This document shows, piece by piece, positions 5,752-63,586 of a stretch of 64,000 bases of DNA. The notes below the pieces were generated by a model. That model saw only the letters and a program-made list of their open reading frames with translations. It was not told where the DNA came from and made no database searches. The translations under genes and the position numbers were made by a program. The DNA comes from Candidatus Micrarchaeota archaeon (GTDB lineage: Archaea > Micrarchaeota > Micrarchaeia > Anstonellales > Bilamarchaeaceae): assembly GCA_964552755.1 (NCBI GenBank), contig CAZKHX010000003.1, positions 11,899-75,898 of the forward strand. Direction: 5' to 3'. How positions within the stretch are numbered: the stretch's first letter is position 1; each line of letters begins with the position of its first letter.

Positions 5752-5759
5752 CTTAAATT
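5752..5759. promoter_or_regulatory. shared bidirectional TATA-like box (CTTAAATT)
   Basis: Its centre is ~26.5 nt from GTG 5782 (+, UbiA) and ~28.5 nt from ATG 5727 (-, phosphatase-superfamily protein). Confidence 0.35.
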
Positions 5760-5781
5760 GCATTTCCCCGCAAAACCTTCC

Positions 5782-7843: not shown

Positions 7844-7903
7844 GGGAAGAAATTATGGCGAGGGCTTAAAATAGGTATTGGAATATAGAGCATTGTTTTT
7901 GGG

Positions 7904-27294: not shown

Positions 27295-27422
27295 GCTCCG
27301 ATAGTCTAGCCCGGTCTAGGATGTCGGCCTTTCGGCGAACCCTTTTTGGGCTGCCTAAAAGCGTTCACGGAAAAGGGCTCGAAAGAAAGCCGATGGCCCG
27401 GGTTCAAATCCCGGTCGGAGCA
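27295..27422 (+). tRNA. tRNA-Glu (anticodon UUC) with ~53-nt intron after position 37
   Basis: Hand-folded: acceptor GCTCCGA/TCGGAGC, D arm GTCT..GGAT, anticodon stem TCGGC/GCCGA, and loop CTTTCG[intron 27335-27387]A with anticodon TTC at 27331-27333. The T arm is CCGGG-TTCAAAT-CCCGG and the discriminator is A. No CCA is encoded. A T5 run follows at 27427-27431. Confidence 0.8.
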
Positions 27423-32824: not shown

Positions 32825-33969
32825 TTTTGATGAAAATTGCATTCTTCACGGATACATACGTTCCCAACCGGGACGGCGTGGTTACTGCGCTGGTCAACTA
32901 CAAGCAGGAGCTGGAGAAGCTCGGGCACGAGGTGTACATATTCACCCCGGGCACGAAGAAGCAGAAGAAGGAGAACAGGGACAAGAAGGTCTACTATTTC
33001 ACGTCCGCCTCGTTCAAGCCATACCCGGACTACCGGCTCTCGCTGTTCCCGTTCCTTTCCGCGGTGAAGGCAGTGAAGGAGATAAAGCCGGACATAGTGC
33101 ATTCCCACGGGGTCGCGACCACCGGGCTGGCGGCCGTGCAGTGCTCGCGCAGCCTTAAGGTGCCTGCAATCGCGAGCTTCCATACCATGATCCCGCAGGC
33201 GACCCACTACCTCGCAAAGAAGGAGGATACGCAGAAGCTCCTGGAGAAGGTCGCATGGAAATACCTCAGGTGGTACTATTCCCTCTTCCGCATTGTCACC
33301 GTGCCCAGCGAGCATACGGCAAAGATACTCCGGCAGCACGGGATTGAGAATACGCGCGTGCTCCCCATGGGCATCAGCGTGAAGTACTATGCGAACGGTG
33401 ACGGCAAGAAGGTGCGCGACAAATACTCACTGGGCAAAAAGAAAATCGTGCTGCACGTGGGTAGGATGGTGGAGGAGAAGAACATCGGCATGCTCATAAA
33501 CGAGGCGCAGTCCATAGTGAACAAGAACCCGGACATACGGTTCGTGATGGTGGGCGGCGGACCCGCGGAGGAAAGCTTCCGCAGCATGGCGAGAATGAAG
33601 GGCGTGGATGAGTATTTCGTATTCACGGGCTTCGTGCCAAGGGAGGAACTGCCCGATTACTATGCCGCGGCGGACGCATTCGCATTCCCCTCGACCTTCG
33701 ACACGCAGGGGCTTGTTGCGCTCGAGGCGATGGCCGCGGGCGTGCCCGTGGTGGTGCAGGCGGACTCTGCGGCCGCAGAGATTGTTGAGGACGGGGTGAA
33801 CGGCTTCACTTTCAAAAGCCCGATTGATTTCAGGGAGAAAATCCTTGCCGCGGTCGCGGGCAAGGGCAGGATGTCAGAAGCGGCAAGTAAAAAGGCCGCG
33901 GAATACTCCAAGAGCAGGCGCACTGAGGCGCTTGTGCGGCTCTACGAATCTATACTTTCATCTCCTTGA
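32821..33969 (+). CDS. GT4-family (GT-B fold) glycosyltransferase
   Basis: MKIAFFTDTYVPNRDGV, the C-terminal FAFPSTFDTQGLVALEAMAAGVPVV (E-x7-E region) and VEDGVNGF are present. Confidence 0.75.
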   Translation: MILMKIAFFTDTYVPNRDGVVTALVNYKQELEKLGHEVYIFTPGTKKQKKENRDKKVYYFTSASFKPYPDYRLSLFPFLSAVKAVKEIKPDIVHSHGVATTGLAAVQCSRSLKVPAIASFHTMIPQATHYLAKKEDTQKLLEKVAWKYLRWYYSLFRIVTVPSEHTAKILRQHGIENTRVLPMGISVKYYANGDGKKVRDKYSLGKKKIVLHVGRMVEEKNIGMLINEAQSIVNKNPDIRFVMVGGGPAEESFRSMARMKGVDEYFVFTGFVPREELPDYYAAADAFAFPSTFDTQGLVALEAMAAGVPVVVQADSAAAEIVEDGVNGFTFKSPIDFREKILAAVAGKGRMSEAASKKAAEYSKSRRTEALVRLYESILSSP

Positions 33970-41543: not shown

Positions 41544-42104
41544 CTAGTCCTGCTCCTTCCGGTAGCCGCGGCCGTAAATCATCTTCCTGCGCACCGGTTT
41601 TCCCGTATTCTTGTTGAGGCGCGGCTCTTCCGTACTGTACGAATCGGTGCGCTGCGGCTGCGAATCGCTCCAGGAATCCGTGCGCCGGGGCCTCGAATCA
41701 AGCATTTCGCTGCGCGGCCTGCCCCCGTAGTTTATGCGCATGGGCTCCTTCTTCCCCTCAACATCAAGGAGCAGCCAGCGGTCCTTCACCTGCAGCTTCT
41801 TCTTCAGCACCGTATATGCCGCCTCCATTGGAAGGGAGCGGGAGTTGGAGCTCACCACAAGCACCTTGTAGTTCGCGGGAGTGCTGTTGAGGTAGGTGAG
41901 CGTCTCGAAGAAGTCGCGCTTGCTGCCGAACTCCACCCTGAGCGCAATCGAGATGTTCTTGCCCTGCAGGGTGATGCCGCGATCGCTCTTCCCGGAAACC
42001 GTGAACCTCTTGCTTAGCCCTATCAGTTCATAGGTCGTAAGCAATGAGGGGATGAGGTTTTCGACCGGCTTTTTAACCGATGCGATTTCCGAGAGCACAT
42101 CCAT
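41544..42104 (-). CDS. hypothetical protein with basic, R/S/D-rich disordered tail
   Basis: This is the C-terminal portion of the 510-aa track ORF, the rest of which is antisense to AMMECR1. I chose Met at 42104 because it lies ~27 nt from the shared TATA. Starts at 42143 and 42158 are alternatives. The tail repeats RTDSWSDSQPQRTDSYS. Confidence 0.4.
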   Translation of the reverse strand: MDVLSEIASVKKPVENLIPSLLTTYELIGLSKRFTVSGKSDRGITLQGKNISIALRVEFGSKRDFFETLTYLNSTPANYKVLVVSSNSRSLPMEAAYTVLKKKLQVKDRWLLLDVEGKKEPMRINYGGRPRSEMLDSRPRRTDSWSDSQPQRTDSYSTEEPRLNKNTGKPVRRKMIYGRGYRKEQD

Positions 42105-42126
42105 AGTGTATGCATTGATGGGATGG

Positions 42127-42136
42127 TATTTTATAG
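42127..42136. promoter_or_regulatory. shared bidirectional TATA-like box (TATTTTATAG)
   Basis: Its centre is 25.5 nt from ATG 42157 (+, AMMECR1) and 27.5 nt from ATG 42104 (-). This is the spacing expected between an archaeal TATA box and the TSS, which implies leaderless mRNAs in both directions. Confidence 0.4.
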
Positions 42137-42156
42137 CTTCCATGAGATAGCTGGCC

Positions 42157-42729
42157 ATGGGGTTTTCTGGGGAGGAAAAGGCCAAGCTGCTTCTTCTCGC
42201 GCGGAAGGCGATAGGGCAATTCCTGGAGACCGGGGAAGCGCCGGAAGTGGTGAAGGAGGTGGATGCCGCTGAATTCTCCGAGCCGCGCGGGGTGTTCGTC
42301 ACGCTCAGGCGCGGGGGCGAGCTCAGGGGGTGCATCGGCTTCCCCCTGCCTACCTTGCCGCTCGGGAGGGCGGTGATGCAGGCGGCGGTTGCCGCAGCCA
42401 GCTCGGACTTCAGGTTCCCGCAGGTCACGCTCGAGGAGCTGCCGGACATTGCAATAGAGATAAGCGTGCTCACCGTTCCTGAAAAAATAGAGGTGGAGAA
42501 ACCGGAGGAGTACCCCCGGAAGGTTAAAATAGGCGAGGACGGCCTTATCATCGAATGCATGGGCCACTCCGGGCTGCTGCTCCCGCAGGTGCCGGTGGAG
42601 GAGGGGTGGGACGCGGAAACTTTCCTCGGCCACCTGTGCATGAAGGCGGGCCTGCCCCCGGGGACGTGGAAAAACGAGGGTGTGGAAATAAAGGCTTTCA
42701 AGGCGGAGATAATGAGTGAGGGAAAATGA
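42157..42729 (+). CDS. AMMECR1-domain protein
   Basis: The signature GELRGCIGFPLP is present and the length is typical. Confidence 0.8.
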   Translation: MGFSGEEKAKLLLLARKAIGQFLETGEAPEVVKEVDAAEFSEPRGVFVTLRRGGELRGCIGFPLPTLPLGRAVMQAAVAAASSDFRFPQVTLEELPDIAIEISVLTVPEKIEVEKPEEYPRKVKIGEDGLIIECMGHSGLLLPQVPVEEGWDAETFLGHLCMKAGLPPGTWKNEGVEIKAFKAEIMSEGK

Positions 42730-43562
42730 AGGCAAAGGTCATCAAGAGGCAAAGCGGAAGCTACATACGGCTGCCGGAAGAGCTGCGCGGCGAGAGCGAA
42801 GTAGAGCTGCACACCCTCCGTGACGGTTTCTATTTGCTCAGCGTGCCCCTTGGGGGCGGAAGCAAAGGGGCAGAAGCTGCCAATAGCGGCGGAGGGGAAG
42901 CGCATGCCCCGGCTGAAGGCGCGGGGGATTCTGATGCGGCCCGCGCTCCTGCGGGGAATGCCGCAAGCGGCGCTGTTGGCCCCCCTCCTGCTGCAGGGCC
43001 GGGGCTTGATGCGCAGGAGGGCGCCCTGCTCAGGAAGCTCATTTCCATCCCGTTTGGAAAACGCGTGCCTTCCCACCTTGCAAAAGTGCTTACGGAGGGG
43101 GAGAAGGAGGCTCTCAATGGGCTGAAGAAAAAGGGCGCGGTCTCGTTCTTCAGGAGCGACAAATACAAAGAGGGGGTGTTCAACATAAGCAAGAAATTCT
43201 ACGGCAACATGGGGAGGGAAGCCCCGGCCGGCCCCTCGGAGATGGAGAAGCAGCTCTTCCGCGACGGGTATCTCGTGATAACCGACAGGAGGGTGGCGCA
43301 GGACCTCTCGGAAAAGCTCTCAAGGCAGAGGTTCACCATCGCCGGCGTGAAGGCATTCGACGGAAAATACTACATCGCGACAAAGGCATTCCTTGGGAAA
43401 GTGAACGGCCTGCTCGCAAAGGCCGGGCCGGAAGTGGAGCCCCGCATGCTGGTTGAGAAATTCGGCGGCGAGCCGATGGGGTATGCGGCCGCGCTGAAAA
43501 TCCTCGCGGAAAGCGGGGAATACGCAGAAGAGAAGGGCGGAATTTTCGTGAAGGTGGATTGA
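42726..43562 (+). CDS. hypothetical protein (AbrB/SpoVT-like N-terminus, G/A/P-rich linker, wHTH-like C-terminal modules)
   Basis: MKAKVIKRQSGSYIRLPEELRGESEVELHTLRDGFYLL resembles a swapped-hairpin barrel. The low-complexity region spans aa 45-100. It overlaps both neighbours by 4 nt. Confidence 0.45.
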   Translation: MKAKVIKRQSGSYIRLPEELRGESEVELHTLRDGFYLLSVPLGGGSKGAEAANSGGGEAHAPAEGAGDSDAARAPAGNAASGAVGPPPAAGPGLDAQEGALLRKLISIPFGKRVPSHLAKVLTEGEKEALNGLKKKGAVSFFRSDKYKEGVFNISKKFYGNMGREAPAGPSEMEKQLFRDGYLVITDRRVAQDLSEKLSRQRFTIAGVKAFDGKYYIATKAFLGKVNGLLAKAGPEVEPRMLVEKFGGEPMGYAAALKILAESGEYAEEKGGIFVKVD

Positions 43563-46175: not shown

Positions 46176-46282
46176 TGCAGGGGGCAGGATTTGAACCTGC
46201 GTAGGCCCTGAGGCCACAGGATTTCCAAGGCATTCTCAGCCGCTTAAGTCCTGCGCATTTGGCCGTGCTCTGCAACCCCTGC
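46176..46282 (-). tRNA. tRNA-Leu (anticodon UAA) with ~20-nt intron after position 37 and long variable arm
   Basis: Hand-folded from the reverse complement: acceptor GCAGGGG/CCCCTGC, anticodon stem CAGGA/TCCTG, and loop CTTAAG[intron]A. The variable arm is TGGCCTCAGGGCCTAC, the T arm GCAGG-TTCAAAT-CCTGC and the discriminator A. A TATA-like TTTTATTTT (46312-46320) lies upstream. Confidence 0.8.
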
Positions 46283-46559: not shown

Positions 46560-48533
46560 TCATGCAATCAAGTGGATTCCGTACATGAGCACCGCGCCCG
46601 CGAACACGAGGGAGACGGTGTTCACCACCTTGATGAGGGCGTTGAGCGCCGGGCCGGCGGTGTCCTTCAGCGGGTCGCCCACCGTGTCTCCGACCACCGC
46701 GGCCTTGTGGGCGTCGGAGCCCTTGCCGCCGTATTCGCCGTCCTCGATGAGCTTCTTGCCGTTGTCCCATGCCGCGCCTGCGGTGCACATGAACAGCGCA
46801 AGCAGGAAGCCGCTCGCGATTGCGCCCGCGAGCAGGCCCGCGAGGGCCGCGGCCCCGAACAGCAGGCCGACCACGAGGGGAGTGAGCACTGCGATTAAGC
46901 CGGGCACGACGAGCTCGCCGAGCGCGGTCTTGGTGCTGATGTCAACGCACCTCGCATAGTCCGGCTTCGCCTTCCCGGACATCAGGCCCTTTATGTCCCT
47001 GAACTGCCTCCTCACTTCCTCCACTATTTCGAAGGCGGCCCTCCCGACCGCCGTCATGAGCATGGAGGAGAATATGAAGGGCATGAGCGCTCCGATGAAC
47101 AGCCCGACTACCACCGCGGGGTCGAGCAGGCTGATTTCGGTGAGCCCGCTCTCCTCCGCAAATGCAACGAAGAGGGCAAGGGCGCCGAGCGCCGCGCCGC
47201 CGATTGCGAACCCTTTCGTGGTCGCCTTCGTGGTGTTGCCAACGGAATCAAGCGCGTCGGTAATCTTGCGCACCGAAGCGGGCAGGCCGCTCATTTCCGC
47301 GATGCCCCCTGCGTTGTCCGTAATCGGGCCGTAGGAGTCCACGGTGATGATGATTGCGCTGAGTGAGAGCATCGCCGCAGCCGCGAGCGCAACTCCGTAG
47401 AGGCCTCCGAGCACGTAGGAGATGGCTATTGCCGCGATTATCACGAGCGCGGGGAGGGTGGTTGACTCCATGCCCACCGCAAGCCCCTGGATGAGGTTCG
47501 TGCCCGCGCCGGTCTGGGCCGCTGCCGCAACCTCCTTGACCGGCCTGTGCTCCTTTGCCGTATAGTACTCGGTAATCACGAACAGCAGGGCGGTCACCAC
47601 CACGCCCACTATGCCCACGTAGAAAAGGTTCATGCTTATTGGCGCGGCGAAGAAGTAATACCCGATGATTGCAAATATTATTGTCGCCGCGAGGCCCTTG
47701 TAGAATGCTCCCATTATGCTGCCGCCCTTCCCGAGGCGGATGAAGAGCGAGCCCAGTATGCTCGCGATTGCGCCCACTGCGCCGACCGCAAGCGGGAGCA
47801 GGATGAACTCGGGCGAAACGAGCGCGCCGAGGAGCATTGCCGCAATGAGCGTGACCACGAAGGACTCGAAAACGTCCGCGGCCATGCCCGCGCAGTCGCC
47901 CACGTTGTCTCCAACGTTGTCGGCAATCACCGCGGGGTTGCGGGGGTCGTCCTCTGGGATGCCCTTCTCAATCTTGCCCACTAGGTCCGCACCCACGTCC
48001 GCGGCCTTCGTGTAGATGCCGCCTCCGACACGGGCGAACAGGGAAATGAGGGATGCGCCGAACCCATAGCCCACCAGGGGAACGAGGTCGCCGCCGAATA
48101 TGTGGTAGAGGCCGGAGAGCCCGATGAGGCCTAGGCCGACGAGGGCCATGCCGGTCACTGCGCCACCCTTCGTGGCGAGGGAGAGGGCGCCCTTGAGGCT
48201 CTTCTTCGCGGCCTGAGAGACGCGCACGTTCGCGCGCACCGCGACCTGCATGCCGATGTAGCCGGCAAGCGCGGAGCAGAAGACGCCCGCGAGGAATGCT
48301 ATTGCAGTGCCCTGCGAGACGAATGAGAATATGAGCAGGGCAAGGACTATCACGATGGGGAGCAGCGTCTTGTACTGCCTCATGAGGAACGCGTCAGCGC
48401 CCTCGCGGATTGCCGAGGCGATTTCCACCATCTTTTTGTCCCCCGTGGGCGCGCGGTTCACCGAGAATGCAAGCAGGAGCGCATACAGGAGCGTGACTAT
48501 GCCTGAACCAAAAGCTATTGTTGTGATATCCAT
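46560..48533 (-). CDS. hppA: membrane-bound proton/sodium-translocating pyrophosphatase
   Basis: [38 protein letters not shown] and [17 protein letters not shown] motifs are present, with about 15 TM helices. Confidence 0.9.
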
Positions 48534-49094: not shown

Positions 49095-51824
49095 CTAAGA
49101 CCTCTTCAGGCTGCTGACGAACTGGTTCGCTGCGGTGAGGGTGTCGTCCGCGTACATGCCGGCAACCACTATCTTGTTGCCGATTGCCTTCACGACAACC
49201 GGGGTTGCCTCGAAGTCCACGTCCGAACCCGCAATCGCCTCAGCGGTTACGGTGTTGACCTGGTCACCACCAACGGTAATGACCACGCCGGTGTCAAGGC
49301 CGGTCGCGTCCCTGTCCAGCATCACAAGGTTGCTGGTGAGCTTGTACGGCACAGAGGTCTCAACTGTCGGAGTGTTGTCCGGCATGATGACCGCAGATAC
49401 CGAGCTCATGTCACAGGTCCCAGCGCCCGCCGCCGCACCAACGGTGCACGGTGTAAGCTGCTGGTCGATGGACTTGACGAGCACCTTCACGCCGGTGGTC
49501 CCGACGACCGCCTCCTCGCCCTCGTGGAGGGTGTAGGTGTTGGTGTCAGGCTCCGCCTCGGCGGTTTCCGCAGTTGCGAAGGTGTACGACGCCTTCAGCA
49601 GGCTCTTCGGCACGCGGAACTCCCTGCTCCTGTCGGACCCAGACTTGAACTGGGTGCCCCTCAGTGAGAGGAAGTACGCCTCGTAGGAGGTCATGTCCTC
49701 GTAGCCGAGGTTGCCGTCGCCAAAGGTCGCGCCAATCGGGTTCACCGGGTCAGGCGCGTCGGACTCCCCTACAATTGCAAGGCAGACCTCGTCCTTCTCC
49801 GCCGCAGTGCACGCGTCCCTGAGCTCATTGTCAGCTCCGGTGTCAACTGCAGTGCCGAGCGCGTCCACGACAGTGTTCGTGGTTCCGCCAGCTTCCTTCC
49901 ACTTGCCTGCGTCTTCAACGAGCCAAGTCTCAGGAAGGCCTGTCCAGCTCACCGGAGTGTCGTAGACAAGGAAGTACCCGTTGCTGCCTGCCCACCTGTA
50001 GTCGAACTCGAGGATGCCGCCAGCCCCTTCATAGAGCCAGTAGTCGCCATCCTTGTCCTCCAGGATTGCAGAGCCAGTCGGCGGGTCACCAGTGCCACAG
50101 GTGTCGTCAACCGCACCGTCGAACAGCCAGTAAAGGGTTCCGCCTCTCCTGGTCCCTGCTGCGGCCGGGAAGGTCGGGGTGCCCCTGAACTCGCCGTCGC
50201 TGACTGTTACCTCGTACGCCTCGTTGGGCGAGATGTTGATGTAACACTTGTCGTCAGCGTCCGAGGTGCTGTTCCTCACGCCAATCCTCTTGCTGGTGAT
50301 GTGCTTGTACTTGAGGGTGTCGTAGTCGACGCCTTCATCGTCCACACCATTGTACAGGAGGTCGAACTTCTCGTAGTCCGGGAGGTCCACAACCGGGAAC
50401 TGGTCCCCTGCGACCATTTCATCGTAGTCGCTGGAATCAGTGTACAGGTAGAGCGCCCTCCAGTACATCGGGTCGCTCTTCGCCATGTTGGTTCCCTCGT
50501 TGGACCAGCCGATCAGGACGTCCCATTCGGAGTCAGAGTCCTCGATGAATTCCTTTCCGTCCTTGAGCTCAATCTCATCGGAGTAGATGGCCAGCTCGGC
50601 CCACTTCGCGATGAAGTTCAAACCCGGTGCGGTCTGGTACACGTGGAGCTTCACTCCGGTAGGCGTGTCACAGAGGTCATCCTTTGTCTGGCCCGGCCAT
50701 ACCTGGTCCTGGCAAACCTCGTTGTCGTTTGCGTCAAGGACGGTAATAATGGCGGGGTGCGCGTTGCCTGCGCCGACCTCACGTGAAATGTCGTCCAGCC
50801 TCACCTTGTACCCGGTTCCGGTGTCAAGCATCTCGCCGACGTTGATGATTCCGCTGACTGCCTCCTTCGCAAGCTTTATGATGGAGCCGTCAGTGTGGAA
50901 CACCTCGGTGTCCGCGGACGTTCCGGCTGCGCCGGTTGCGGGCTCGACCTCAGACACAACCCAGTCCTCGTTCAGGAAGCGGACGAAGACCTTGTGCGCC
51001 GGGATGGTGTCAGTGTCGTCACACGCCATGGTGTTGACGCCGCTGAGGCCAAGGCCAGAGTCTCCGGGGCAAATCGGGATTCCGTAGTCGCCATTCGGGT
51101 CGAAAATGATCACGTAGGCTCCGGACTGTATGTTGAGCTCGAGCTCATTGTCCGACGGGTCCCAGTTGTTCCAGGCGTTGGTGACGAAGAACTGCTGCTC
51201 CGTCCACTTGTCGCCGGACTTGGTGTCCTGCACTTCGACGTCAGCGAAGGGCGCAAAGTTGCCGCCGTTCGCCTGGTGGACTGCCTTCCAGGTGATGTCG
51301 TCGAAATCAGTGTCGACATACCCACCGATGTGGTCCTGGAAGATGTTCGCCTCATCGTCATCGTAGTCGTCGCGAATGGTGTATGCCTCGTCTGCATCGG
51401 TCTCGGACTCGTACCTGTTCTCCAGTTCCCTGTCGATGTAGTCACCGATTGCGGACTTGAAGTCGTACCTTCCGAGTGCGCCAGAGCCCGGCACGGTAAT
51501 CTCAAGGGTCACTGTTTCAGAGCCCTCGACTACCTCACAGGTGCCTGCGCCTCCTTCTCCGTTGCAGGTTCCTTCGCCAACAACTTCAGCAGTCAAAGTG
51601 GCGCTCTTGTATGCCTCGTTTGCAAGTTTTGAGGCAATCCAAGCGCCTGCCACGCCGTCACTAGACCAACCATTTTCGCCAACGACAACCTTCGCCAGGG
51701 GCTGGCCATCGTTGTTCACCAGCTCGACGTTGTTGTACATCAAGCCGGCGAAGGCGACAGAGCTGGCCAAAATAGCAGACCCAGCTACGATCGCCCCGAT
51801 CTTCTTCAGGTTTATTCCTTTCAC
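49095..51824 (-). CDS. S-layer protein (Methanococcales-type N- and C-terminal S-layer domains)
   Basis: The signal peptide is KKIGAIVAGSAILASSVAFAG. The N-terminal motif is KVVVGENGWSSDGVAGAWIASKLA and the C-terminal motifs are VVITVGGDQVNTVTAEAI...KIVVAGMYADDTLTAANQF. The protein is very acidic. The GTG start is preceded by AGGTG at a 5-nt spacing. Confidence 0.65.
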   Translation of the reverse strand: MKGINLKKIGAIVAGSAILASSVAFAGLMYNNVELVNNDGQPLAKVVVGENGWSSDGVAGAWIASKLANEAYKSATLTAEVVGEGTCNGEGGAGTCEVVEGSETVTLEITVPGSGALGRYDFKSAIGDYIDRELENRYESETDADEAYTIRDDYDDDEANIFQDHIGGYVDTDFDDITWKAVHQANGGNFAPFADVEVQDTKSGDKWTEQQFFVTNAWNNWDPSDNELELNIQSGAYVIIFDPNGDYGIPICPGDSGLGLSGVNTMACDDTDTIPAHKVFVRFLNEDWVVSEVEPATGAAGTSADTEVFHTDGSIIKLAKEAVSGIINVGEMLDTGTGYKVRLDDISREVGAGNAHPAIITVLDANDNEVCQDQVWPGQTKDDLCDTPTGVKLHVYQTAPGLNFIAKWAELAIYSDEIELKDGKEFIEDSDSEWDVLIGWSNEGTNMAKSDPMYWRALYLYTDSSDYDEMVAGDQFPVVDLPDYEKFDLLYNGVDDEGVDYDTLKYKHITSKRIGVRNSTSDADDKCYINISPNEAYEVTVSDGEFRGTPTFPAAAGTRRGGTLYWLFDGAVDDTCGTGDPPTGSAILEDKDGDYWLYEGAGGILEFDYRWAGSNGYFLVYDTPVSWTGLPETWLVEDAGKWKEAGGTTNTVVDALGTAVDTGADNELRDACTAAEKDEVCLAIVGESDAPDPVNPIGATFGDGNLGYEDMTSYEAYFLSLRGTQFKSGSDRSREFRVPKSLLKASYTFATAETAEAEPDTNTYTLHEGEEAVVGTTGVKVLVKSIDQQLTPCTVGAAAGAGTCDMSSVSAVIMPDNTPTVETSVPYKLTSNLVMLDRDATGLDTGVVITVGGDQVNTVTAEAIAGSDVDFEATPVVVKAIGNKIVVAGMYADDTLTAANQFVSSLKRS

Positions 51825-55624: not shown

Positions 55625-55758
55625 TGGAATCAGGGGAATTGTGGGAAAGAGAAATTAAAAATCTGCTGAGTCCGCTTTGATTGATGAAAAATGGAAGAAA
55701 GTGTAAAAAAGCAAACTTATATAAATGCTGATTGGTGCATATAATACTAGGTGCTAAA

Positions 55759-57522
55759 ATGGCGTCTCCCCAGAAACAGCAAACGAAAAAATATGCGCAG
55801 GAGAAGGATTTCGACCTCTGGGCCTCCAAGGCGGAAAAGGCCGGCAAGGTAACCAAGGGGCTGTTCTTGCAGATTTACGAATACCATAAGGACAGGGTGC
55901 TCTACCCTTCCAAGAATGAAATCATGAAGAGGACCATCGCGACCATTAACCGGATAGAGAAGGAGACGGGCATTGGGCTCAAGTTCCACAAGGTGGGGAA
56001 CATGCAGGTGCCTTCGTTCTACTGGAACTACTGGGTGAAGGAGACCGTAGGCAATAAGGGCATCGTGCGCAGCAGCACAGGCAAGGAGATGCAGAATTAT
56101 TACAAGAAATACTACGGGACGCTTGGGCTGGGGAGCACCGAGATGATTCCCGATGCGGTGGAGAAGGAGGCGCTTGCGATAATAGAGAAAAAGAAGAAAT
56201 CCAAGGTATATGTCACCGAGAAATACCCCGGCGCGTTCAAGGGCAGGGACAAGGTGCTCAAGGAGGCCGCGGAAAAGGCAACCATCCTCGACAAGAACTA
56301 CTGGGAGAACCTTTACCAGAAAGGGGACTGGGAAACGCTCACGAAAGACGCCGCGAAATTCCTCAAGGCGAGGAATGTTTCGGCGACCGACCAGAACGTG
56401 CTGGACCTGCTCAGGCTGGTGCTCGGCCACGCGGTGGATTCCTATGTTGTGGAATACAAGGGGCCGGTGAAAGCGCCCGAGAAGAAGGCGAAGCCTGCCA
56501 AGAAGGCCGCCGGGAAAAAGAAAATCGTGGAGGAAGGGGCGCTCGGCCCGAACTTCGCGAAGCTGGCGACCGAAGTTACGGTACTGGACATGAACTACTG
56601 GACCGACCTGCGCAAGGAAGAGGACTACGATACGCTGTTTGACACGGTGCACGAGTTCCTCGCCTCGAAGGGCGTGCTTGCGACCGAGGCCGAGCTGAAC
56701 GAATTCCTCGGCATCGTCTTCGGGCAGAGCTGGGGCTACCCGCCCAGCCGCAAGAAAACCGTGCCCGTGAAGGAGGCGGCCGCAATCGAGGCGGTGCCCC
56801 TTGAAACGGGCAAGAAGCCGGGCGCGAAGAAGGCGAAGCCCGGGAAGGCTGCGGCCGAAAAGGCAGAGGTGCCCGGGCTCGGCAGGCCCGTGCTCAATCT
56901 CCCCAAGAAGACCTCCGCGGACCTTACCGTGGGGGACGTCCGCGAGATGGGGACCGCAACCTGGGACCTGCTCAAGGTCGCGGAGCGCGGCGCGGGAGAC
57001 GAGGAAGTGCTCCTTGCGGAAATGGCCTACATGGAATCCCTGAGCGGCACTCCGTTCGAGAAGGAGTTCATGGAGGGCAAGAGGACTGCCACTTCAATCG
57101 GAGGGAAGGGCGGCATATCCAAGGGCAACACCGTGAACAGGCTCAAGTGGGTATGCAACGAGTTCTACAAGGCAGGGGCCATAGACGGGCCGGGGCTGGA
57201 ATACAACGGAAAGTTCGACAAAGAGACGCGCGCGGCGGTGAGGAGGCTGCAGGCATTCCTGATGGAATACGTGGGGCCCGAAGCTGCGCTTGCGGCCTGG
57301 AACCTATACAACCCTAAGAGCAAGGCAACCGCGAAGAACATAGAAAACAAGTTCGTTGACGGCATCTTCGGCCAGGCGACGCTGGACCTGCTCGTGCAGT
57401 ACTACGAGATGCGCGGCGCGGAAGGCGCCGTTGAGGGCATGAGCAAATGGGAAGGCGCCCCCGCGGTGCCGCTGCGCACCACCCACAAGGGCAAGGGGAC
57501 CCCGAAGAAAACGAAGAAGTAG
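55759..57522 (+). CDS. lysine-rich protein with two internal ~65-aa repeats and a C-terminal peptidoglycan-binding-like (PG_binding_1-type) domain
   Basis: The two repeats are ATILDKNYWENLYQKGDWETLTKDAAKFLKARNVSATDQNVLDLLRLVLG and VTVLDMNYWTDLRKEEDYDTLFDTVHEFLASKGVLATEAELNEFLGIVFG. The C-terminal GKFDKETRAAVRRLQAFL...VDGIFGQATLDLL fits the PG-binding three-helix consensus. No signal peptide is present. It was trimmed to ATG 55759. Confidence 0.5.
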   Translation: MASPQKQQTKKYAQEKDFDLWASKAEKAGKVTKGLFLQIYEYHKDRVLYPSKNEIMKRTIATINRIEKETGIGLKFHKVGNMQVPSFYWNYWVKETVGNKGIVRSSTGKEMQNYYKKYYGTLGLGSTEMIPDAVEKEALAIIEKKKKSKVYVTEKYPGAFKGRDKVLKEAAEKATILDKNYWENLYQKGDWETLTKDAAKFLKARNVSATDQNVLDLLRLVLGHAVDSYVVEYKGPVKAPEKKAKPAKKAAGKKKIVEEGALGPNFAKLATEVTVLDMNYWTDLRKEEDYDTLFDTVHEFLASKGVLATEAELNEFLGIVFGQSWGYPPSRKKTVPVKEAAAIEAVPLETGKKPGAKKAKPGKAAAEKAEVPGLGRPVLNLPKKTSADLTVGDVREMGTATWDLLKVAERGAGDEEVLLAEMAYMESLSGTPFEKEFMEGKRTATSIGGKGGISKGNTVNRLKWVCNEFYKAGAIDGPGLEYNGKFDKETRAAVRRLQAFLMEYVGPEAALAAWNLYNPKSKATAKNIENKFVDGIFGQATLDLLVQYYEMRGAEGAVEGMSKWEGAPAVPLRTTHKGKGTPKKTKK

Positions 57523-57526
57523 GGGC

Positions 57527-58237
57527 TCAAAACCTTACCCCCAGCCTCGCGACCGGCGCAACGTCCGTGTGCTTTTCTTCCAGCTCAGTGAACATCCTCA
57601 GCTGAATCCCTGCGGAGAGCCTTCCCCCGAACAGGATGCCCACGCCCAGCTCGGAATATATTGTTTTTGCAAGGATGTTCGCCTTCACCAGCACCTCCAT
57701 GAATACCCTGTCCGCAAATGTCTTGCTTGCGTAGGCCACGAGCTGTATGTCTTCTGCGCCGCCCATGCTCCAAGGGGAAACCCTGAATAGCAGGAAGAAC
57801 CCTCCCGGGCTTGCGCTGTACATCAGCCCCGGGCGGAATACGGAATCCATGCCGCTGCCCGCATCCACCTCCGCATATGCGGCGAGCCCCTTGAACAGCT
57901 CCTGGGCAATTCTCCCTTCCCCGTAGAACGTATCGAAGCTCACGGAATTGTCCTTCGAGGGCTCGAAATCGGTGAACGCATAAACCGAGGTGCCGGTATC
58001 GAACGATGCTCCGCCCTCGATGCGGAGGGTGGGCTTGTTCGCGTGCAGCACGTAGCCCGGCCATGCAATCGCCCATCCCTTTCCCTCGGCCATTGCGGGC
58101 CTTGAGTAGAAGGGGAGCGCAAGGACCGCGCATGCAAGCGTGCCTGCCATTAGCTTCTTTCCTGCATCCCACAGCCTTTTCCCAAAGCGGGGCTTCTCCG
58201 CAACCTTTTCCTGTTTTGCTTCCATTTTGGTTTTCAT
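57527..58237 (-). CDS. secreted protein with outer-membrane beta-barrel-like features
   Basis: The signal peptide KKLMAGTLACAVLALPFYSRPAMA/EG is followed by ~10-12 amphipathic alternating segments, for example SVYAFTDFE, IQLVAYASK and LSAGIQLRMF. The protein ends in ...VARLGVRF with a terminal Phe. The first ATG is at 58237; the track start at 58267 is TTG. Confidence 0.45.
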   Translation of the reverse strand: MKTKMEAKQEKVAEKPRFGKRLWDAGKKLMAGTLACAVLALPFYSRPAMAEGKGWAIAWPGYVLHANKPTLRIEGGASFDTGTSVYAFTDFEPSKDNSVSFDTFYGEGRIAQELFKGLAAYAEVDAGSGMDSVFRPGLMYSASPGGFFLLFRVSPWSMGGAEDIQLVAYASKTFADRVFMEVLVKANILAKTIYSELGVGILFGGRLSAGIQLRMFTELEEKHTDVAPVARLGVRF

Positions 58238-58397
58238 ATCATCATTCCCTTCCGAGTATCCCGTCAAACTCTTTCGGGTTTTTTCTTATTTGTATTTTCA
58301 TGGTAATATGTGGGTTAAAGCGGTATATAAATATTGTTTTCCCCTATGGGGGACACAAAATGGAAACGATTAAATATTCCGCATGAGGAATGGGTTA

Positions 58398-59159
58398 ATG
58401 GATACGAAGGTGCTTGAGGAGTTGGGGCTTACTAAGGGGGAGGTGAAAGCGTACCTTGCGCTGCTGAAGCTCGGCTCAACCTCCACCGGGCCTCTTGCGG
58501 AGGAGAGCGGCGTCTCCCGCTCAAAATTGTATTCCATACTCGGCCGGCTGGAGAAGAAGGGGCTCGCGGGCCACGTGGAGGAAAGGGGGGTGGTGCGCTT
58601 CCAGGCGGTCGAGCCCGCGAAGATAAGGGACTACATCAGGCGCAAGGAAACGAACCTGAAGGAGCTGGGGGAGAAGTTCGAGAATTTCCTGCCGCGGCTG
58701 GAGAGCTGGAAAAGGGGCGCGGAGGAGGTGCAGAAGGTCACGCTCTACCAGGGCTTCGAGGGCATAATCACGGTGCACGAGCACACCTACCCCAAGCTGA
58801 AGAGGGGGGAGGAATACTATTACATGGGGATAGCGTCTACGCAGACCGAGAGGCACCACAGGTACTGGCTGAAGGACCACCTTCGCAGGATAAAGGCAGG
58901 CATAAAGTGCAAGCTGCTTTACAACCGGGACGTTCCGCTCGAGATACTGAAGGGCAGGAACGAGTTCCCGGGGTGCGACGCCCGATACATGCCGAAGGGC
59001 ATCCAGCCTCCGGCGTGGTTCCTCGGATACAAGGACACCGTTTCCATCTGCGTGCCCACCGGGAAAACCATCACCGTGGAGATAATCAGCCAGGAAATCG
59101 CGGACTCCTTCAGGGAATACTTCGATGCGGTGTGGGCGAAGGCGAAGCAGTTCGGGTGA
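58398..59159 (+). CDS. TrmB-family transcriptional regulator
   Basis: MDTKVLEELGLTKGEVKAYLALLKLGSTSTGPLAEESGVSRSKLYSILGRLEKKGL is the TrmB wHTH. The start was trimmed to Met6 of the track ORF. Confidence 0.75.
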   Translation: MDTKVLEELGLTKGEVKAYLALLKLGSTSTGPLAEESGVSRSKLYSILGRLEKKGLAGHVEERGVVRFQAVEPAKIRDYIRRKETNLKELGEKFENFLPRLESWKRGAEEVQKVTLYQGFEGIITVHEHTYPKLKRGEEYYYMGIASTQTERHHRYWLKDHLRRIKAGIKCKLLYNRDVPLEILKGRNEFPGCDARYMPKGIQPPAWFLGYKDTVSICVPTGKTITVEIISQEIADSFREYFDAVWAKAKQFG

Positions 59160-59923: not shown

Positions 59924-60889
59924 ATGGGAAAGAAATACGGCGTGAATGTGAAGAAGGTGCGAGGGATACAGGCTTCGATAAACAGGGCTATTTTTGCGGG
60001 CAGGAAGGGCGCGCTCGTCGGGCATTATGCGGGCATCGTGCCGTTCAAGGGCGAGAGGCTTGCGATACATACTGATGGCGTGGGCACAAAAGTGCTGGTT
60101 GCGCAGGCGGTGCGCAAATACGACACCATAGGAATAGACGCAATCGCAATGAACGTGAATGACATCATCTGCGTTGGCGCGCGGCCGCTTTCGGGCGTGG
60201 ACTACCTTGCGGTTGCGAAGGAGGATGGATATTTGATTTCTGAGATAATGAAGGGGCTTGTGAAGGGCGCGAAGGAAAGCGACATCTCAATTGTAGGCGG
60301 GGAGACCGCAATCATGAAGGACGTGATCAAGGGGGGAGAAAGGCCCTTTGATTTGGCCTTTACCGCGCTGGGGGTCGTGGAGAAGTACACCACCGGCGCG
60401 GCTTCCCGGCCGGGGGATGTGATGATAGGGCTGGGGAGCTCGGGCATCCATTCCAACGGGTACACGCTGGCGCGGAAGACATTGAGCATGAAGAAATGGG
60501 GGAAGGAGATGCTCAGGCCCACGAAAATCTACGTGAAGCCGGTGATGGAGATGCTGCACAAATCAAAAGTGCACGGGCTTGCGCACATCACGGGAGGCGC
60601 GTTTTCCAAGCTCACGCGGCTGAACAAGAAGGTGCGCTTCCAGATTGACGAGCCGATGAAGCCGCAGGGGATTTTCAGGGAAATCTGGAAATCGGTCGGC
60701 AGCGAAAAGGAAATGTACCGCACGTTCAACATGGGCATAGGCATGGTCGTAGTGGCCCCTGCGCGGGAAGAAGAAGGCATATTAAGCATAGCGAAGAAGC
60801 ATCGCGTGAAGGCGCAGGTCATCGGCAGCATCGAACGGGGGAATGGAGTATACCTTGGCAAGACCCGGCTGGACTACCAGGTGGGCTGA
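59924..60889 (+). CDS. purM: phosphoribosylformylglycinamidine cyclo-ligase (AIR synthase)
   Basis: LAIHTDGVGTKVLVAQ...YDTIGIDAIAMNVNDIICVGARPLSGVDYLAV and IGLGSSGIHSNGYTL match PurM. Confidence 0.8.
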   Translation: MGKKYGVNVKKVRGIQASINRAIFAGRKGALVGHYAGIVPFKGERLAIHTDGVGTKVLVAQAVRKYDTIGIDAIAMNVNDIICVGARPLSGVDYLAVAKEDGYLISEIMKGLVKGAKESDISIVGGETAIMKDVIKGGERPFDLAFTALGVVEKYTTGAASRPGDVMIGLGSSGIHSNGYTLARKTLSMKKWGKEMLRPTKIYVKPVMEMLHKSKVHGLAHITGGAFSKLTRLNKKVRFQIDEPMKPQGIFREIWKSVGSEKEMYRTFNMGIGMVVVAPAREEEGILSIAKKHRVKAQVIGSIERGNGVYLGKTRLDYQVG

Positions 60890-61812
60890 TGGGAAAGGTT
60901 GAGAAAACCCTTGCGGACATAAAGGCGCTCAAGATACAGGGGGCAAGGAACGTTGCCAAGGCCGGAGTTGGCGCGCTTGTCTGGAGCATCGAGGGCTCGA
61001 AGGCAAAAACCCACGGCCGGCTTGCAAGCGACGTGAGGGCGGCGGCAAAGAAAATCTCGAGGGTGAGGCCCACCGAGCCCATGCTCAGGAACATGGTTTC
61101 GGAGGCGGAGAAGGTTGCGCTCGGCGAAATTGCGGCTTACCCGGGAAAAGACATGCGCGTGGTGAAGAAGCGCATAAGGAAGGCGGTTGGCGCGCACCTG
61201 AAAGAGGTAAAGAAGAATGTTGAGAAGCTCTGGGATTACGGAGCGGAGCTTATCCCGAAGGGGGCGGTAGTCATCACGCACTGCCATTCCAGCACCGTTA
61301 CGGGAATCCTGAAGAGGGCGAAAAGAAAGGGGAAGAAATTCAGCGTGGTCGCGTGCGAGACGAGGCCCAGGTACCAGGGCAGGATTACCGCGGCGGAGCT
61401 TGCGGCCGCGGGCATCCCGGTGACGCTCACCGTGGACCTCGGGGTTGCGAAGTTCATGAAGAAGGCGGACATCGTGCTCGTGGGCGCGGATGCAATCACC
61501 GCAACGGGCGACCTCATAAACAAGGTGGGGACTTCCGCGGTGGCGCGGCTCGCGCGCATAAACGACGTTTCGTTTTTCTCGGCATCGGAAACGCTGAAGT
61601 ACGACCCGCTGACCGCCTACGGCAAGAGGGAGGAAATAGAGCAGCGGGACCTGAAGGAGGTATGGGGGAAGCCCGCGCGCGGGGTGAAGGTGGCGAACCC
61701 CGCATTTGACGTGACGCCCGCGCGCTACATGAACGGGTACATCACCGAGATGGGGATAATCCCGCCGCAGAACCTTGCGGACATGGTCGCAAGGAAAAAG
61801 GAGGTTTTATGA
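60889..61812 (+). CDS. ribose-1,5-bisphosphate isomerase / eIF-2B alpha-beta-delta family protein
   Basis: IKALKIQGARNVAKAG, VVACETRPRYQGR, ADIVLVGADAITATGDLINKVGT and NPAFDVTP are present. It is adjacent to AMP phosphorylase. Confidence 0.75.
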   Translation: MGKVEKTLADIKALKIQGARNVAKAGVGALVWSIEGSKAKTHGRLASDVRAAAKKISRVRPTEPMLRNMVSEAEKVALGEIAAYPGKDMRVVKKRIRKAVGAHLKEVKKNVEKLWDYGAELIPKGAVVITHCHSSTVTGILKRAKRKGKKFSVVACETRPRYQGRITAAELAAAGIPVTLTVDLGVAKFMKKADIVLVGADAITATGDLINKVGTSAVARLARINDVSFFSASETLKYDPLTAYGKREEIEQRDLKEVWGKPARGVKVANPAFDVTPARYMNGYITEMGIIPPQNLADMVARKKEVL

Positions 61813-63458
61813 TGAGCCCGAAAAAGAAGGAGAAGGAAGAGAAGAGCAAGCTCAAGGCCATTGAAAACGGGAAGATGAAGGATGCGGACATACTCTCCAA
61901 GGAGGAAGAGGAAAAGAGGAAGGCGAAGGAGAAGTTCTGGGCTGAGAAGAAGTACATCGCGCAGGTGAAGAGGATAGACATCCGCGTGGGGGAGAACATC
62001 ATAGTGCTCAACGAGGCCGAGGCGCTGGAGAATGAGATATACAGCGGCTACCGGGTTATAATAAAGCACAGGGACGATGAGCTCATCTGCATAGTCGACC
62101 TGAGCAGCGAGATGGTGAAAAAGGGGGAGGTGGGCTGCTTCAAGGACGTGTGGGAGGTGCTCAAGCTCAAGGGCGGCGACATAATCAAGATAGGGCACAT
62201 GGAGAGGCCCGCGAGCATAGGGTTCATCAAGAAGAAGCTGGATGGCGAAACGCTCAGCCCGATACAGATAAGCACCATAATCTCAGACCTGATGGAAAAC
62301 CGGCTGAGCAAGGCGGAGCTGGCGAGCTGGATAAGCTCCATGTACATCAGGGGGATGAGCGAAGAAGAGGTCGTTGCGCTCACCGAATCAATAGTGAAGT
62401 CCGGCGCCCAGCTGGACCTGGGGGTTAAGCCGGTTGCGGACAAGCACTGCATAGGCGGCGTTGCGGGCAACCGGACCACGATGGTCGTTGTCCCGATACT
62501 TGCCGCGGCGGGGGTCTACATCCCGAAAACTTCCTCCCGCGCAATCACCTCGGCGGCAGGCACCGCGGACACCATGGAAGTGCTCGCCCCCGTGAAGTTC
62601 ACCGTAAGCGAGCTCAGGAGGATGGTGAGGAAGGCCAAGGGCGCAATCGCATGGGGCGGGGGCATGAACCTCGCGGCCGCGGATGACAAGCTAATACGGA
62701 TAAGGCACCCGCTCTCGCTCGACCCGAGGGGCGTGCTGCTTGCGAGCATACTCGCGAAGAAAAGGAGCGTGGGCTCCAAATTCCTGGTGATGGACATTCC
62801 GATAGGCAGGGGCACCAAAGTGGAAAACATGGATGCGGCGAACGCGCTCGGCACGGACTTCATCAAGATAGGGAAGAAGCTCGGGATGAGGGTGGAAAGC
62901 CTCATCACGGACGGCTCCGAGCCGGTGGGCAACGGCATCGGCGCTGCGCTGGAATGCAAGGACGTGATGGAGGTGCTGCAGGGTGGAGGCCCGGGCGACC
63001 TGAGCAACAAGAGCTGCCTGATTGCCGGGCGCCTGCTCGAGATGGTGGGCAAGGTTTCCGAAGGCGACGGCTACCAGGTCGCCCAGCATTTCCTCGAGAA
63101 CGGGAAGGCATGGGCGAAGATGCAGGAGATAATAGACATCCAGGGCGGCAACCCGAAGGTGAAGGTTGACGACCTGCCCATAGGGGGCTACAAGCACACT
63201 GTGGAGTCGACCCGCGACGGCAAGATAAGCCACATAGACAACAAGGCGATATCGAAGATTGCAAGGGCGGCAGGCGCGCCGCGGGACACTGGCGCGGGGG
63301 TGTACCTTTTCCGCCTCAAGGGCGACCGCGTGAGGAAGGGCGACGTGCTCTTCGACATATATTCCAGCAGCGAGACAAGGCTGGATTTCGCGATAAAGGC
63401 GCTCGGGGTCTGGGACCCGATAGAAATGGAGAAGATACTCCTCGGGACACTGAGATAA
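61809..63458 (+). CDS. AMP phosphorylase (thymidine-phosphorylase family, archaeal DeoA type) with K/E-rich N-terminal extension
   Basis: The N-terminal domain is VKRIDIRVGENIIVLNEAEA. ADKHCIGGVAGNRTT, TSSRAITSAAGTADTME and DIPIGRGTKV motifs are also present. Confidence 0.8.
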   Translation: MMSPKKKEKEEKSKLKAIENGKMKDADILSKEEEEKRKAKEKFWAEKKYIAQVKRIDIRVGENIIVLNEAEALENEIYSGYRVIIKHRDDELICIVDLSSEMVKKGEVGCFKDVWEVLKLKGGDIIKIGHMERPASIGFIKKKLDGETLSPIQISTIISDLMENRLSKAELASWISSMYIRGMSEEEVVALTESIVKSGAQLDLGVKPVADKHCIGGVAGNRTTMVVVPILAAAGVYIPKTSSRAITSAAGTADTMEVLAPVKFTVSELRRMVRKAKGAIAWGGGMNLAAADDKLIRIRHPLSLDPRGVLLASILAKKRSVGSKFLVMDIPIGRGTKVENMDAANALGTDFIKIGKKLGMRVESLITDGSEPVGNGIGAALECKDVMEVLQGGGPGDLSNKSCLIAGRLLEMVGKVSEGDGYQVAQHFLENGKAWAKMQEIIDIQGGNPKVKVDDLPIGGYKHTVESTRDGKISHIDNKAISKIARAAGAPRDTGAGVYLFRLKGDRVRKGDVLFDIYSSSETRLDFAIKALGVWDPIEMEKILLGTLR

Positions 63459-63491: not shown

Positions 63492-63586
63492 CCCGCTATA
63501 GCTCAACGGTAGAGCGGTCGGCTGTAGCCTGTTTACTGCTAAAAGCAGAAACCGACAGGTTCCCGGTTCAAATCCGGGTGGCGGGA
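63492..63586 (+). tRNA. tRNA-Tyr (anticodon GUA) with ~23-nt intron after position 37
   Basis: Hand-folded: acceptor CCCGCTA/TGGCGGG (C1:G72, as in archaeal tRNA-Tyr), D arm GCTC-AACGGTA-GAGC, and anticodon stem GTCGG/CCGAC. The loop is CTGTAG[intron 63528-63550]A, the T arm CCCGG-TTCAAAT-CCGGG and the discriminator A. No CCA is encoded. Confidence 0.8.

Follow-up and report, generated by a model that had tools for sequence, protein, structure and literature searches.

A predicted bacterial outer-membrane-type β-barrel encoded in a Micrarchaeota genome, its protein family, and its archaeal regulatory setting

The barrel gene and the predicted fold of its product

On the minus strand of a 64,000-nucleotide stretch of DNA from Candidatus Micrarchaeota archaeon (contig CAZKHX010000003.1; the whole stretch is called the window hereafter), an open reading frame (ORF) listed at positions 57527..58237 encodes a precursor of 236 aa, with its ATG at 58237 and the stop codon at 57527-57529 included. 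An earlier reading of the bare sequence—the original prediction—had described the product as a secreted protein resembling the β-barrels of bacterial outer membranes, placed in an archaeal context. The ORF itself holds up: it is intact, and at least 18 contigs (up to 190 kb long; ENA, JGI, NCBI, and Logan) carry the identical 236-aa protein with the same neighbors. The GC content of the gene equals that of its flanks (0.58–0.60), and this level GC together with the same arrangement on at least 18 independently assembled contigs indicates that the gene is real and correctly placed. A start at the in-frame TTG at 58267 would add 10 aa; the ATG is preferred, since the homologues support it.

The first 50 residues (58088..58237, minus strand), as read from the sequence, bear the layout of a Sec-type signal peptide—a long basic n-region, the 15-residue h-region LMAGTLACAVLALPF, and then SRPAMA/EG with an AMA/EG cleavage-type motif. 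AlphaFold2 places a helix at residues 18-39, followed by a disordered linker whose predicted local distance difference test score (pLDDT) falls below 50 at residues 40-51, in agreement with the signal peptide proposed earlier. The same layout is common to the barrel family described below, of which a subset of members carries a lipobox instead. Judging from its N-terminus, the barrel precursor is probably Sec-exported.

Transmembrane β-barrels are treated as characteristic of the outer membranes of bacteria and of organelles that descend from bacteria; archaea are taught to lack both such barrels and the machinery for their insertion. Nevertheless, residues 55-236 of the precursor (57530..58075, minus strand), which end in ...ARLGVRF, are predicted by AlphaFold2 and Foldseek to form a 12-stranded amphipathic barrel domain. 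The AlphaFold2 model, calculated with the target and 43 homologues aligned, reaches a mean pLDDT of 88.7, with values of ~94–98 over residues 55-236 and typically ~97 in the barrel, and shows exactly 12 β-strands with short turns in between. All six strand-like segments that had been picked out by eye are present and coincide with predicted strands: SVYAFTDFE with b3, LAAYAEVDA with b5, IQLVAYASK with b8, VFMEVLVKA with b9, LSAGIQLRMF with b11, and VARLGVRF with b12. A second AlphaFold2 model, of the 25% identical family member P0017 and based on a separate alignment, again shows 12 strands at a pLDDT of 92.

In a Foldseek comparison with the PDB, KdgM comes first for both models, with E = 1.7e-6 and 7e-7 and a target-normalized template modeling (TM) score of 0.69. 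The KdgM entries 4pr7 and 4fqe give E-values from 7e-7 to 4e-6, TM scores of 0.68–0.69, and root-mean-square deviations of 3.7–4.0 Å, and NanC follows with a TM score of 0.60. Further matches after KdgM are VhGalP, FapF, NalP, OmpG, intimin/invasin, PcoB, Tsx, and designed transmembrane barrels. All 50 PDB matches listed per model are transmembrane β-barrels—bacterial outer-membrane proteins (OMPs) and a few designed ones—and no soluble fold, lipocalin, or sandwich occurs among them for either model. Among viral models, the matches are phage-encoded OMP-like barrels. The check by AlphaFold and Foldseek that had been suggested along with the original prediction thus returned a 12-strand barrel with transmembrane-barrel matches. 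A soluble β-sandwich or a lipocalin is rejected on the grounds of the 12 strands, of the lack of such a fold among the 50 listed matches, and of the conserved polar face described next. On the basis of these models, an archaeon-encoded, 12-stranded β-barrel of the bacterial outer-membrane type can be confidently predicted, in accordance with what had been claimed.

The lipid-facing belt was assessed from sequence over the 43 aligned homologues, by strand parity, conservation, and the positions of aromatic residues. In all 12 strands, both in the target and in the family average, residues of one parity are apolar and those of the other are polar, and the alternation of hydrophobic and polar residues noted earlier is hence kept across the family. 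Family-mean Kyte–Doolittle values lie between +0.9 and +2.5 for the hydrophobic face and between 0 and −2.1 for the polar face. The apolar face is made up family-wide of 79% L/V/A/I/G/F/Y and 2% K/R/E/D, and its aromatics increase from 7% at the strand centers to 24% at the strand ends. Conservation is distributed the other way around: 24 columns of the polar face have one residue in at least 70% of sequences (among them E74, Y86, E107, R109, E123, R135, Q165, Y194, E196, and R214), as compared with five columns of the apolar face. In a soluble barrel, the apolar core is conserved and the surface variable. A conserved polar face combined with a variable apolar face is therefore like a channel lumen and the reverse of a soluble barrel. 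These patterns suggest that the apolar face is a lipid-facing belt with aromatic girdles, while the polar face would line the lumen.

Amphipathic alternation alone leaves the outward face ambiguous, and the protein might instead be a soluble or S-layer-associated secreted barrel that turns its hydrophobic face inward and binds a lipid or another apolar ligand, e.g., for scavenging of host lipids. Many DPANN archaea are thought to be without lipid biosynthesis, and to these such a carrier would be useful. We regard this as improbable. By standard barrel geometry, a 12-strand barrel has a radius of ~10 Å, which is too wide to be filled by small A/V/L/G residues, and no plug helix is predicted—making the apolar face an unlikely packed interior. 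Moreover, conservation falls on charged residues and Tyr of the polar face and the apolar face is variable, where soluble barrels show the opposite; the apolar-face aromatics concentrate at the strand ends; the listed structural matches are transmembrane barrels throughout; and bacterial homologues occur in a diderm, where one of the three loci has a TonB-dependent receptor beside the barrel gene.

The C-terminus of the wider family reads P-V-x-G-[VIL]-[KR]-[YFW]-x-F, with Gly at −5, an aromatic residue at −2, and Phe at 0, a motif that equals the bacterial β-signal known from the literature on the β-barrel assembly machinery (BAM). The terminal Phe is present in ~30 of the 43 family members, the target included. 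The target and its Micrarchaeota clade end in R-L-G-V-R-F and keep the terminal Phe and a hydrophobic residue at −2. A C-terminal Phe β-signal, as had been proposed for the target, is hence only partly borne out: these two positions stand, the Gly at −5 does not.

Among known proteins, the KdgM/NanC family (PF06178; 4fqe, 4pr7, 2wjq, 8xua) is most alike. It shares the monomer-sized 12-stranded barrel with short loops, the mature size of ~190–215 aa, the signal peptide, and the terminal Phe, and KdgM is the best structural match of both models. KdgM belongs to a pectin regulon and NanC to a sialic-acid regulon, and the bacterial members of the new family likewise lie in polysaccharide-degradation clusters. 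However, there is no detectable sequence relationship, with 10–15% identity in structural alignments, and the new family bears near-invariant polar-face residues of its own (the ten from E74 to R214 named above), is mostly archaeal, and has a TrmB/Lrp-type partner. PF06178 gave no match in the 43 + 10 proteins scanned at E-values up to 1–5; due to this failed sequence test, we place the new family outside the KdgM family, which it only resembles. With bacterial OMPs more generally (clan MBB: PF13505, PF24653, and OmpA/OmpW/OmpX-like proteins), it has in common the amphipathic antiparallel barrel, the aliphatic belt, the aromatic strand ends, and—in the wider family—the G-x-x-aromatic-x-F C-terminus. 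It differs in that its matches all remain below the curated thresholds and in that its hosts have no known outer membrane or BAM.

Regulator and putative divergent promoter

Next to the barrel gene and divergent from it, a TrmB-family winged-helix regulator is encoded on the plus strand at 58383..59159, 258 aa long if the first ATG is taken; in public gene calls, its start is 58398 and its length 253 aa. Its N-terminus matches the Pfam family TrmB (PF01978) with E = 6.6e-16 and 58 bits against a cut-off of 25.6, and this domain is equally found in five other loci scanned. Beyond the helix-turn-helix (HTH), neither a Pfam domain nor a sugar-binding effector domain was identified. The NCBIfam equivalogs TrmB, TrmBL1, and TrmBL2 match the N-terminal ~100–130 residues only, and this far below their cut-offs. 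Among themselves, the barrel-linked TrmB-like regulators are homologous over their full length, including the C-terminal part (phmmer E = 1e-25 to 1e-108).

The neighborhoods of 18 independent archaeal loci were examined. A divergent TrmB-family regulator lies immediately adjacent to the barrel gene in 12 of them and one or two small ORFs away in another two. Three loci bear a divergent regulator of ~330 aa of the double Lrp/AsnC type instead, and one—that of the marginal member P0060—has neither. The double AsnC-HTH regulators are found at 2551-3543 in L005, 6749-7729 in L007, and 309-1322 in L014, all on the minus strand; the loci belong to two Micrarchaeota metagenome-assembled genomes (MAGs) and one low-GC lineage, and the L005 protein shows a weak AsnC ligand-binding match. 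According to these sequences, the regulator is swapped in the three loci and the promoter geometry is kept.

The divergent intergenic region of the window contains the palindrome CCCC-TAT-GGGGG (58341..58352), a candidate operator, between two A/T boxes. The first, AATATTTATATA (58324..58335, minus strand), is TATA-like and faces the barrel gene, ~87 nt upstream of its ATG; the second, TTAAATATT (58370..58378, plus strand), faces the TrmB-like gene and precedes its ATG at 58398 by ~20 nt, a spacing that would fit a leaderless transcript. Of 12 intergenic regions compared in the same orientation, 10 have a GC-containing palindrome 0–4 bp upstream of the TATA-like box that faces the barrel gene, and in eight the palindrome lies 0–14 bp from the A/T box that faces the regulator gene. 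Two operator types can be distinguished, which track the regulator clades: CCCC-N3-6-GGG(G) in the window, L006, L020, L021, and L022, and ACACCA-N2-4-TGGTGT in L008, L017, L018, L025, and L026. Inverted repeats that match at six or more of seven positions occur in eight of the 12 regions; in 200 shuffles, the number averages 2.4 and never exceeds 6. No enrichment of the palindrome is seen across the window (six matches vs 9.9 expected), and no inverted repeat with a 6-bp seed was found in the intergenic region, the arms of the palindrome measuring 4–5 bp. The proposal of an operator hence derives from its conserved position across loci and not from enrichment in the window. Its only near-identical counterpart elsewhere in the window (6456-6466) falls within a UbiA prenyltransferase gene and is dismissed as coincidental. 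The arrangement of boxes and palindrome suggests an archaeal-type TATA promoter for the barrel gene, and one operator might control both divergent promoters.

TrmB and TrmBL1 are sugar-responsive regulators with palindromic operators beside the B recognition element and TATA box (the TGM motif of Thermococcales). The barrel-linked regulators share with these the TrmB winged-helix domain, a palindrome set against a TATA-like box, and—by family name and known members—a link to sugar transport. On the contrary, they are ~253 or 380 aa long with a C-terminal part that has no Pfam match, their putative operators CCCC-N3-6-GGGG and ACACCA-N2-4-TGGTGT are unlike TGM, and the gene that they would regulate encodes a β-barrel and not an ATP-binding cassette (ABC) transporter.

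The protein family, its hosts, and the genomic setting

An exhaustive phmmer search with the target against 1.84 billion cluster representatives gave 54 matches, of which three (P0009, P0027, and P0040, with 2,300-4,500 aa) were discarded as compositional matches to T/V/A/G-rich repeat proteins. The remaining matches, ~200–250 aa long, align end to end and define a family of about 50 clusters at 50% identity. A word-indexed homologue search recovered close relatives only, six with the target and seven with a profile as query. The homologues bear the same membrane-barrel signature and are not common soluble archaeal proteins, which answers the check on homologues that had been asked for. NCBIfam gives three chance-level matches for the target, none of them to an OMP family. 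The gene is chromosomal and single-copy in each stretch searched, i.e., in the 64-kb window and in every fetched locus. Full-text literature searches gave no description of a β-barrel OMP-like family in DPANN or Micrarchaeota. What seems to be new is that a familiar class of fold occurs in a domain of life where it was not expected, together with archaeal regulatory wiring.

One clade of the family (P0020, P0023, and P0024; 1697-2353 in L016, 716-1360 in L018, and 4944-5570 in L019) replaces the AxA motif by a lipobox, L-[SA]-[GA]-C (LSGC, LSAC, LAGC), followed by A-P-[KQ]-x-N. This points to N-terminally lipid-anchored barrels in archaea that would be tethered to the producing cell, which is hard to square with a toxin that is set free. 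P0060 (E = 7e-4), the putative member that diverges most, is marginal and has no signal peptide. At its locus L029, a PQQ-repeat propeller of 430 aa (6670-7962, plus strand) lies 38 bp upstream of P0060 (8001-8753) on the same strand. It matches Pfam PQQ_2 ('BamB') with E = 2e-47, the sole BAM-flavored label among the neighborhoods examined. PQQ propellers are common in archaea, and this one, lacking a signal peptide, is rejected as evidence of BAM and is probably coincidental.

Of the 17 clear members with a readable neighborhood, 16 lie among archaeal genes. Archaeal markers adjoin even members that are 23–33% identical to the target: RNA polymerase subunit N in L008 and L025; ribosomal protein L21e and Rpb4 in L020; a thermosome with the NCBI name '[DPANN group archaeon]' in L021; the Hel308 archaeal domain in L026; RtcB and archease in L028; and an archaeal ribosomal operon in L029. 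The archaeal loci span 27–67% GC, which implies that many lineages are involved; the taxonomic labels on them comprise Micrarchaeota MAGs and one DPANN-labeled MAG only. For the window itself, the closest relatives in GTDB come from three genomes with 52–62% identity, all labeled Candidatus Micrarchaeota.

The exception is a shallow, Opitutaceae-like bacterial clade, consisting of P0045 and 25 clusters at 52–78% identity, two of which are named 'Opitutaceae bacterium' and 'bacterium'. In three loci of 62–65% GC, the bacterial barrel gene lies directly downstream of an AP_endonuc_2 (xylose-isomerase-like) gene, and its neighbors include sulfatases, GH92, GH99, a major facilitator superfamily (MFS) transporter, a HisKA_3/GerE pair, and—adjoining the barrel gene in one of the three—a TonB-dependent receptor. 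By its gene content, this setting is a glycan-utilization cluster of a diderm bacterium. The hidden Markov model (HMM) of the family recognizes two bacterial members that were left outside its build with E = 1e-57.

In a neighbor-joining tree, the bacterial and the Micrarchaeota clades are each monophyletic in 100/100 bootstraps; with Micrarchaeota taken as the root, the bacterial members branch from within the rest of the archaeal radiation. The tree itself is distance-based, star-like, and unrooted, and it does not tie the bacterial clade to any particular sister. Mean identities amount to 61% among bacterial members, 29% between bacterial and other archaeal members, 31% among archaeal members, and 24% between Micrarchaeota and other archaeal members, and the bacterial and Micrarchaeota clades are likewise 24% identical. 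At 50% identity, ~50 archaeal clusters stand against one bacterial cluster, as counted from a single exhaustive search with an archaeal query, which further bacterial diversity may have escaped. These data suggest a deep and widespread family of DPANN-type archaea with one shallow bacterial branch, and they count against this archaeon having recently imported the gene from bacteria. The earlier idea of a horizontally acquired porin changes accordingly: the gene is neither a lone nor a recent acquisition from bacteria, and the only bacterial members found form a clade nested inside the archaeal family. There are hints, instead, of a transfer of the barrel gene from archaea to bacteria.

One might also suspect a bacterial gene that entered through an assembly or binning error, or a single transfer of very recent date without function, given that the fold type is otherwise bacterial and that an Opitutaceae-like bacterial clade exists. 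This is extremely improbable: the same gene order was independently assembled on the contigs from four sources, which argues against chimeric borders; the GC content matches the flanks; the cluster counts, the bootstraps, and the 24% identity between the two clades separate the target from the bacterial branch; and the synteny with an archaeal regulator and a TATA promoter is conserved across the whole range of GC contents.

The window context, as read from its genes, is archaeal, as had been assumed and as its Micrarchaeota relatives agree. This assignment draws on tRNA genes of intron-containing length, an S-layer-like protein, the TrmB-family regulator, and genes of the AMP phosphorylase and ribose-1,5-bisphosphate isomerase type. 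Rfam identifies three tRNA genes of 95–128 nt each, at 27295-27422 (plus strand), 46176-46282 (minus strand), and 63492-63586 (plus strand), whose length implies introns. ARAGORN reports one of the three only, as a tRNA-Phe whose unusual anticodon, AAA, is most likely an intron-caused mis-parse. The S-layer-like protein of 909 aa (49095-51824, minus strand), encoded 6 kb from the barrel gene, matches the Methanococcus-type S_layer_C with 31.5 bits (cut-off 23.9) and S_layer_N weakly, and suggests that the organism has an S-layer. Beside purM, two adjacent plus-strand genes at 60889-63458 encode a 307-aa protein of the IF-2B family, fitting a ribose-1,5-bisphosphate isomerase, and a 549-aa protein with Glycos_trans_3N, Glycos_transf_3, and PYNP_C domains, fitting an AMP phosphorylase; we take this pair to be the archaeal AMP-salvage pathway, which is presumably often reported in DPANN.

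Downstream, a Lys/Ala/Glu-rich protein of 596 aa (55732-57522, plus strand) converges on the barrel gene with a gap of 4 bp. It appears to repeat a module of ~110 aa internally ('...LDKNYWENLYQKGDWETL...' and '...LDMNYWTDLRKEEDYDTL...'), and its residues ~490–509 give a PG_binding_1 match below threshold (E = 0.0024). This neighbor is kept in near-identical contigs and lies outside the conserved module of other lineages. At 2392-5763 (minus strand), the window further encodes a predicted exported protein of 1123 aa, a fusion of a type I phosphodiesterase/nucleotide pyrophosphatase and a sulfatase; sulfatases likewise surround bacterial barrel-family members (L023, L030, and L031). The ORFs at 33950-36508 (852 aa) and 41544-43076 (510 aa), both on the minus strand, have no Pfam match at E ≤ 0.001.

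Proposed function and location of the barrel

As the best explanation of the whole, we propose—with a probability of roughly 60%—a Sec-exported barrel under an archaeal promoter and TrmB control that acts as a regulated solute channel. Sec would export a transmembrane barrel of ~185 residues and 12 strands; a TATA promoter would drive its gene, with the divergent TrmB-family regulator acting via the TATA-abutting palindrome; the barrel would serve as a regulated channel through which a specific solute, probably a sugar or an oligosaccharide, passes passively; and this channel would span a lipid layer other than the energized cytoplasmic membrane. Membrane insertion, channel activity, substrate class, the regulatory link, and the membrane that hosts the barrel are what we infer here. 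The reading as a solute channel follows from the fold, from the conserved, charge-balanced, and Tyr-rich polar face, and from the size and shape of KdgM and NanC, while that of a sugar or oligosaccharide as substrate follows from the glycan-cluster setting in bacteria and from the pairing with a regulator of the ('sugar-specific') TrmB family.

As for the membrane, a membrane-bound H+-translocating pyrophosphatase (46560-48533, minus strand; H_PPase, E = 5e-264) implies that the cytoplasmic membrane is energized, and a non-selective barrel pore is hence unlikely to reside there. A porin in a cell's own energized cytoplasmic membrane would be harmful, which leaves a second lipid layer or the membrane of a host as the remaining options.

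Several observations weigh against the proposed explanation. Barrel closure, the hydrophobic belt, and the size of the pore are deduced from DSSP strands, strand parity, and Foldseek matches. On the sequence level, the target and nine other members have no Pfam OMP-family match even at E = 1–5, the few matches being unrelated chance ones; sub-threshold Pfam matches among the 43 members comprise Phage_OMP in four and OMP_b-brl in two; and a search of PDB sequences with the family profile returned nothing at E up to 10. In the C-terminus ARLGVRF of the target, Arg replaces the Gly at −5 of the β-signal. The link to sugars relies on bacterial gene neighbors and on the name of the TrmB family, while catabolic genes are not conserved beside the barrel gene of archaeal members. 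We also know of no archaeal BAM/Omp85 machinery, and neither Omp85 nor POTRA is among the Pfam labels of the neighborhoods examined. Finally, tomography of the cultivated Micrarchaeota ARM-1 in 2024 identified its 'outer membrane' as an S-layer (PMC11329633). With this S-layer and the S-layer-like protein of the window itself, there is no obvious membrane for the barrel.

According to the first option, the archaeon has an outer lipid membrane of its own, in which the barrel resides; these DPANN lineages would then be diderm and use the barrel as a porin. The full OMP signature of the family, including its β-signal-like C-terminus, would fit, as would the lipobox members, which imply retention on the producing cell, and the chromosomal, single-copy, and tightly regulated gene, which is reminiscent of a housekeeping channel. 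Cryo-tomography by Comolli in 2009 of cells of ARMAN, to which Micrarchaeota belong, was read as showing inner and outer membranes with a periplasm in between, as related in Klingl's review (PMC4243693). However, the ARM-1 tomography at higher resolution gives an S-layer (PMC11329633), the window encodes the S-layer-like protein nearby, and the neighborhoods examined contain no genes for lipid export or barrel assembly, in addition to the lack of a known archaeal BAM. Taken by itself, we consider this option unlikely.

The second option is that the exported barrel inserts into a host membrane at the contact site and forms a conduit for sugars or other metabolites to a reduced DPANN symbiont—taken by itself, rather unlikely as well. 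Small barrels of this class can fold into bilayers without BAM in vitro. A foreign membrane would also be the logical target for a pore that is harmful in the cell's own energized membrane, and TrmB-type control fits a conditional deployment. DPANN are mostly obligate ectosymbionts, according to a passage of the ARM-1 paper (PMC11329633), and PopA, a porin-like protein of a bacterial predator, offers a loose precedent (PMC12228718). On the contrary, the neighborhoods examined show no adhesin domain, secretion-system neighbors, or toxin-immunity pairing, the lipobox members would be tethered to their producer, and the bacterial members lie in ordinary glycan-utilization clusters, suggesting a self-serving porin. 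In addition, one member is encoded on a 1.56-Mb contig together with a chemoreceptor and Suf proteins, and its organism is maybe not an obligate symbiont. All in all, the second membrane and the host membrane appear about equally likely as the site of the proposed channel.

To our knowledge, Ihomp1 is the only characterized archaeal outer-membrane protein. Also named Imp1227, it is a pore protein of the outer membrane of Ignicoccus, as Burghardt et al. are said to have described in 2007. It resembles the barrel as an archaeal protein proposed to form pores outside the cytoplasmic membrane but is a tiny α-helical oligomer that is not known from outside Ignicoccus, whereas the new family consists of predicted β-barrels of bacterial type and occurs in various DPANN lineages. 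The Bdellovibrio protein PopA is, in turn, a porin-like barrel linked to a predatory or parasitic lifestyle, but forms a pentameric, lipid-trapping assembly (PMC12228718), and its structures are not among the 50 listed Foldseek matches. The PopA paper adds a one-line remark on a possible distant relative in Altiarchaeales (PMC12228718), which is another protein in another lineage and the only published hint that we found of an OMP-like barrel in a DPANN-labeled archaeon.

Beyond the regulated solute channel, one might propose that DPANN archaea natively make and assemble bacterial-type barrels without BAM—as an ancient and lineage-wide conduit of their envelope or toward their hosts, be it a porin of a true second membrane or a pore set into the membrane of a host—and that the porins of Opitutaceae are of archaeal origin. 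We put this forward as a tentative and somewhat doubtful extension.

If the proposed reading is true, some ultra-small archaea would either own a lipid layer that hosts barrels or export barrels into the membrane of another cell. This bears on the nature of the DPANN envelope and on the uptake of metabolites from hosts by these symbionts. The system comes with experimental handles—a small and easily expressed protein, a cognate regulator, and a predicted operator—and might help to test how barrels fold without BAM and how OMP genes are transferred between two domains. Hereby, an outer-membrane protein family would, if the direction of transfer is true, have moved from archaea to bacteria.

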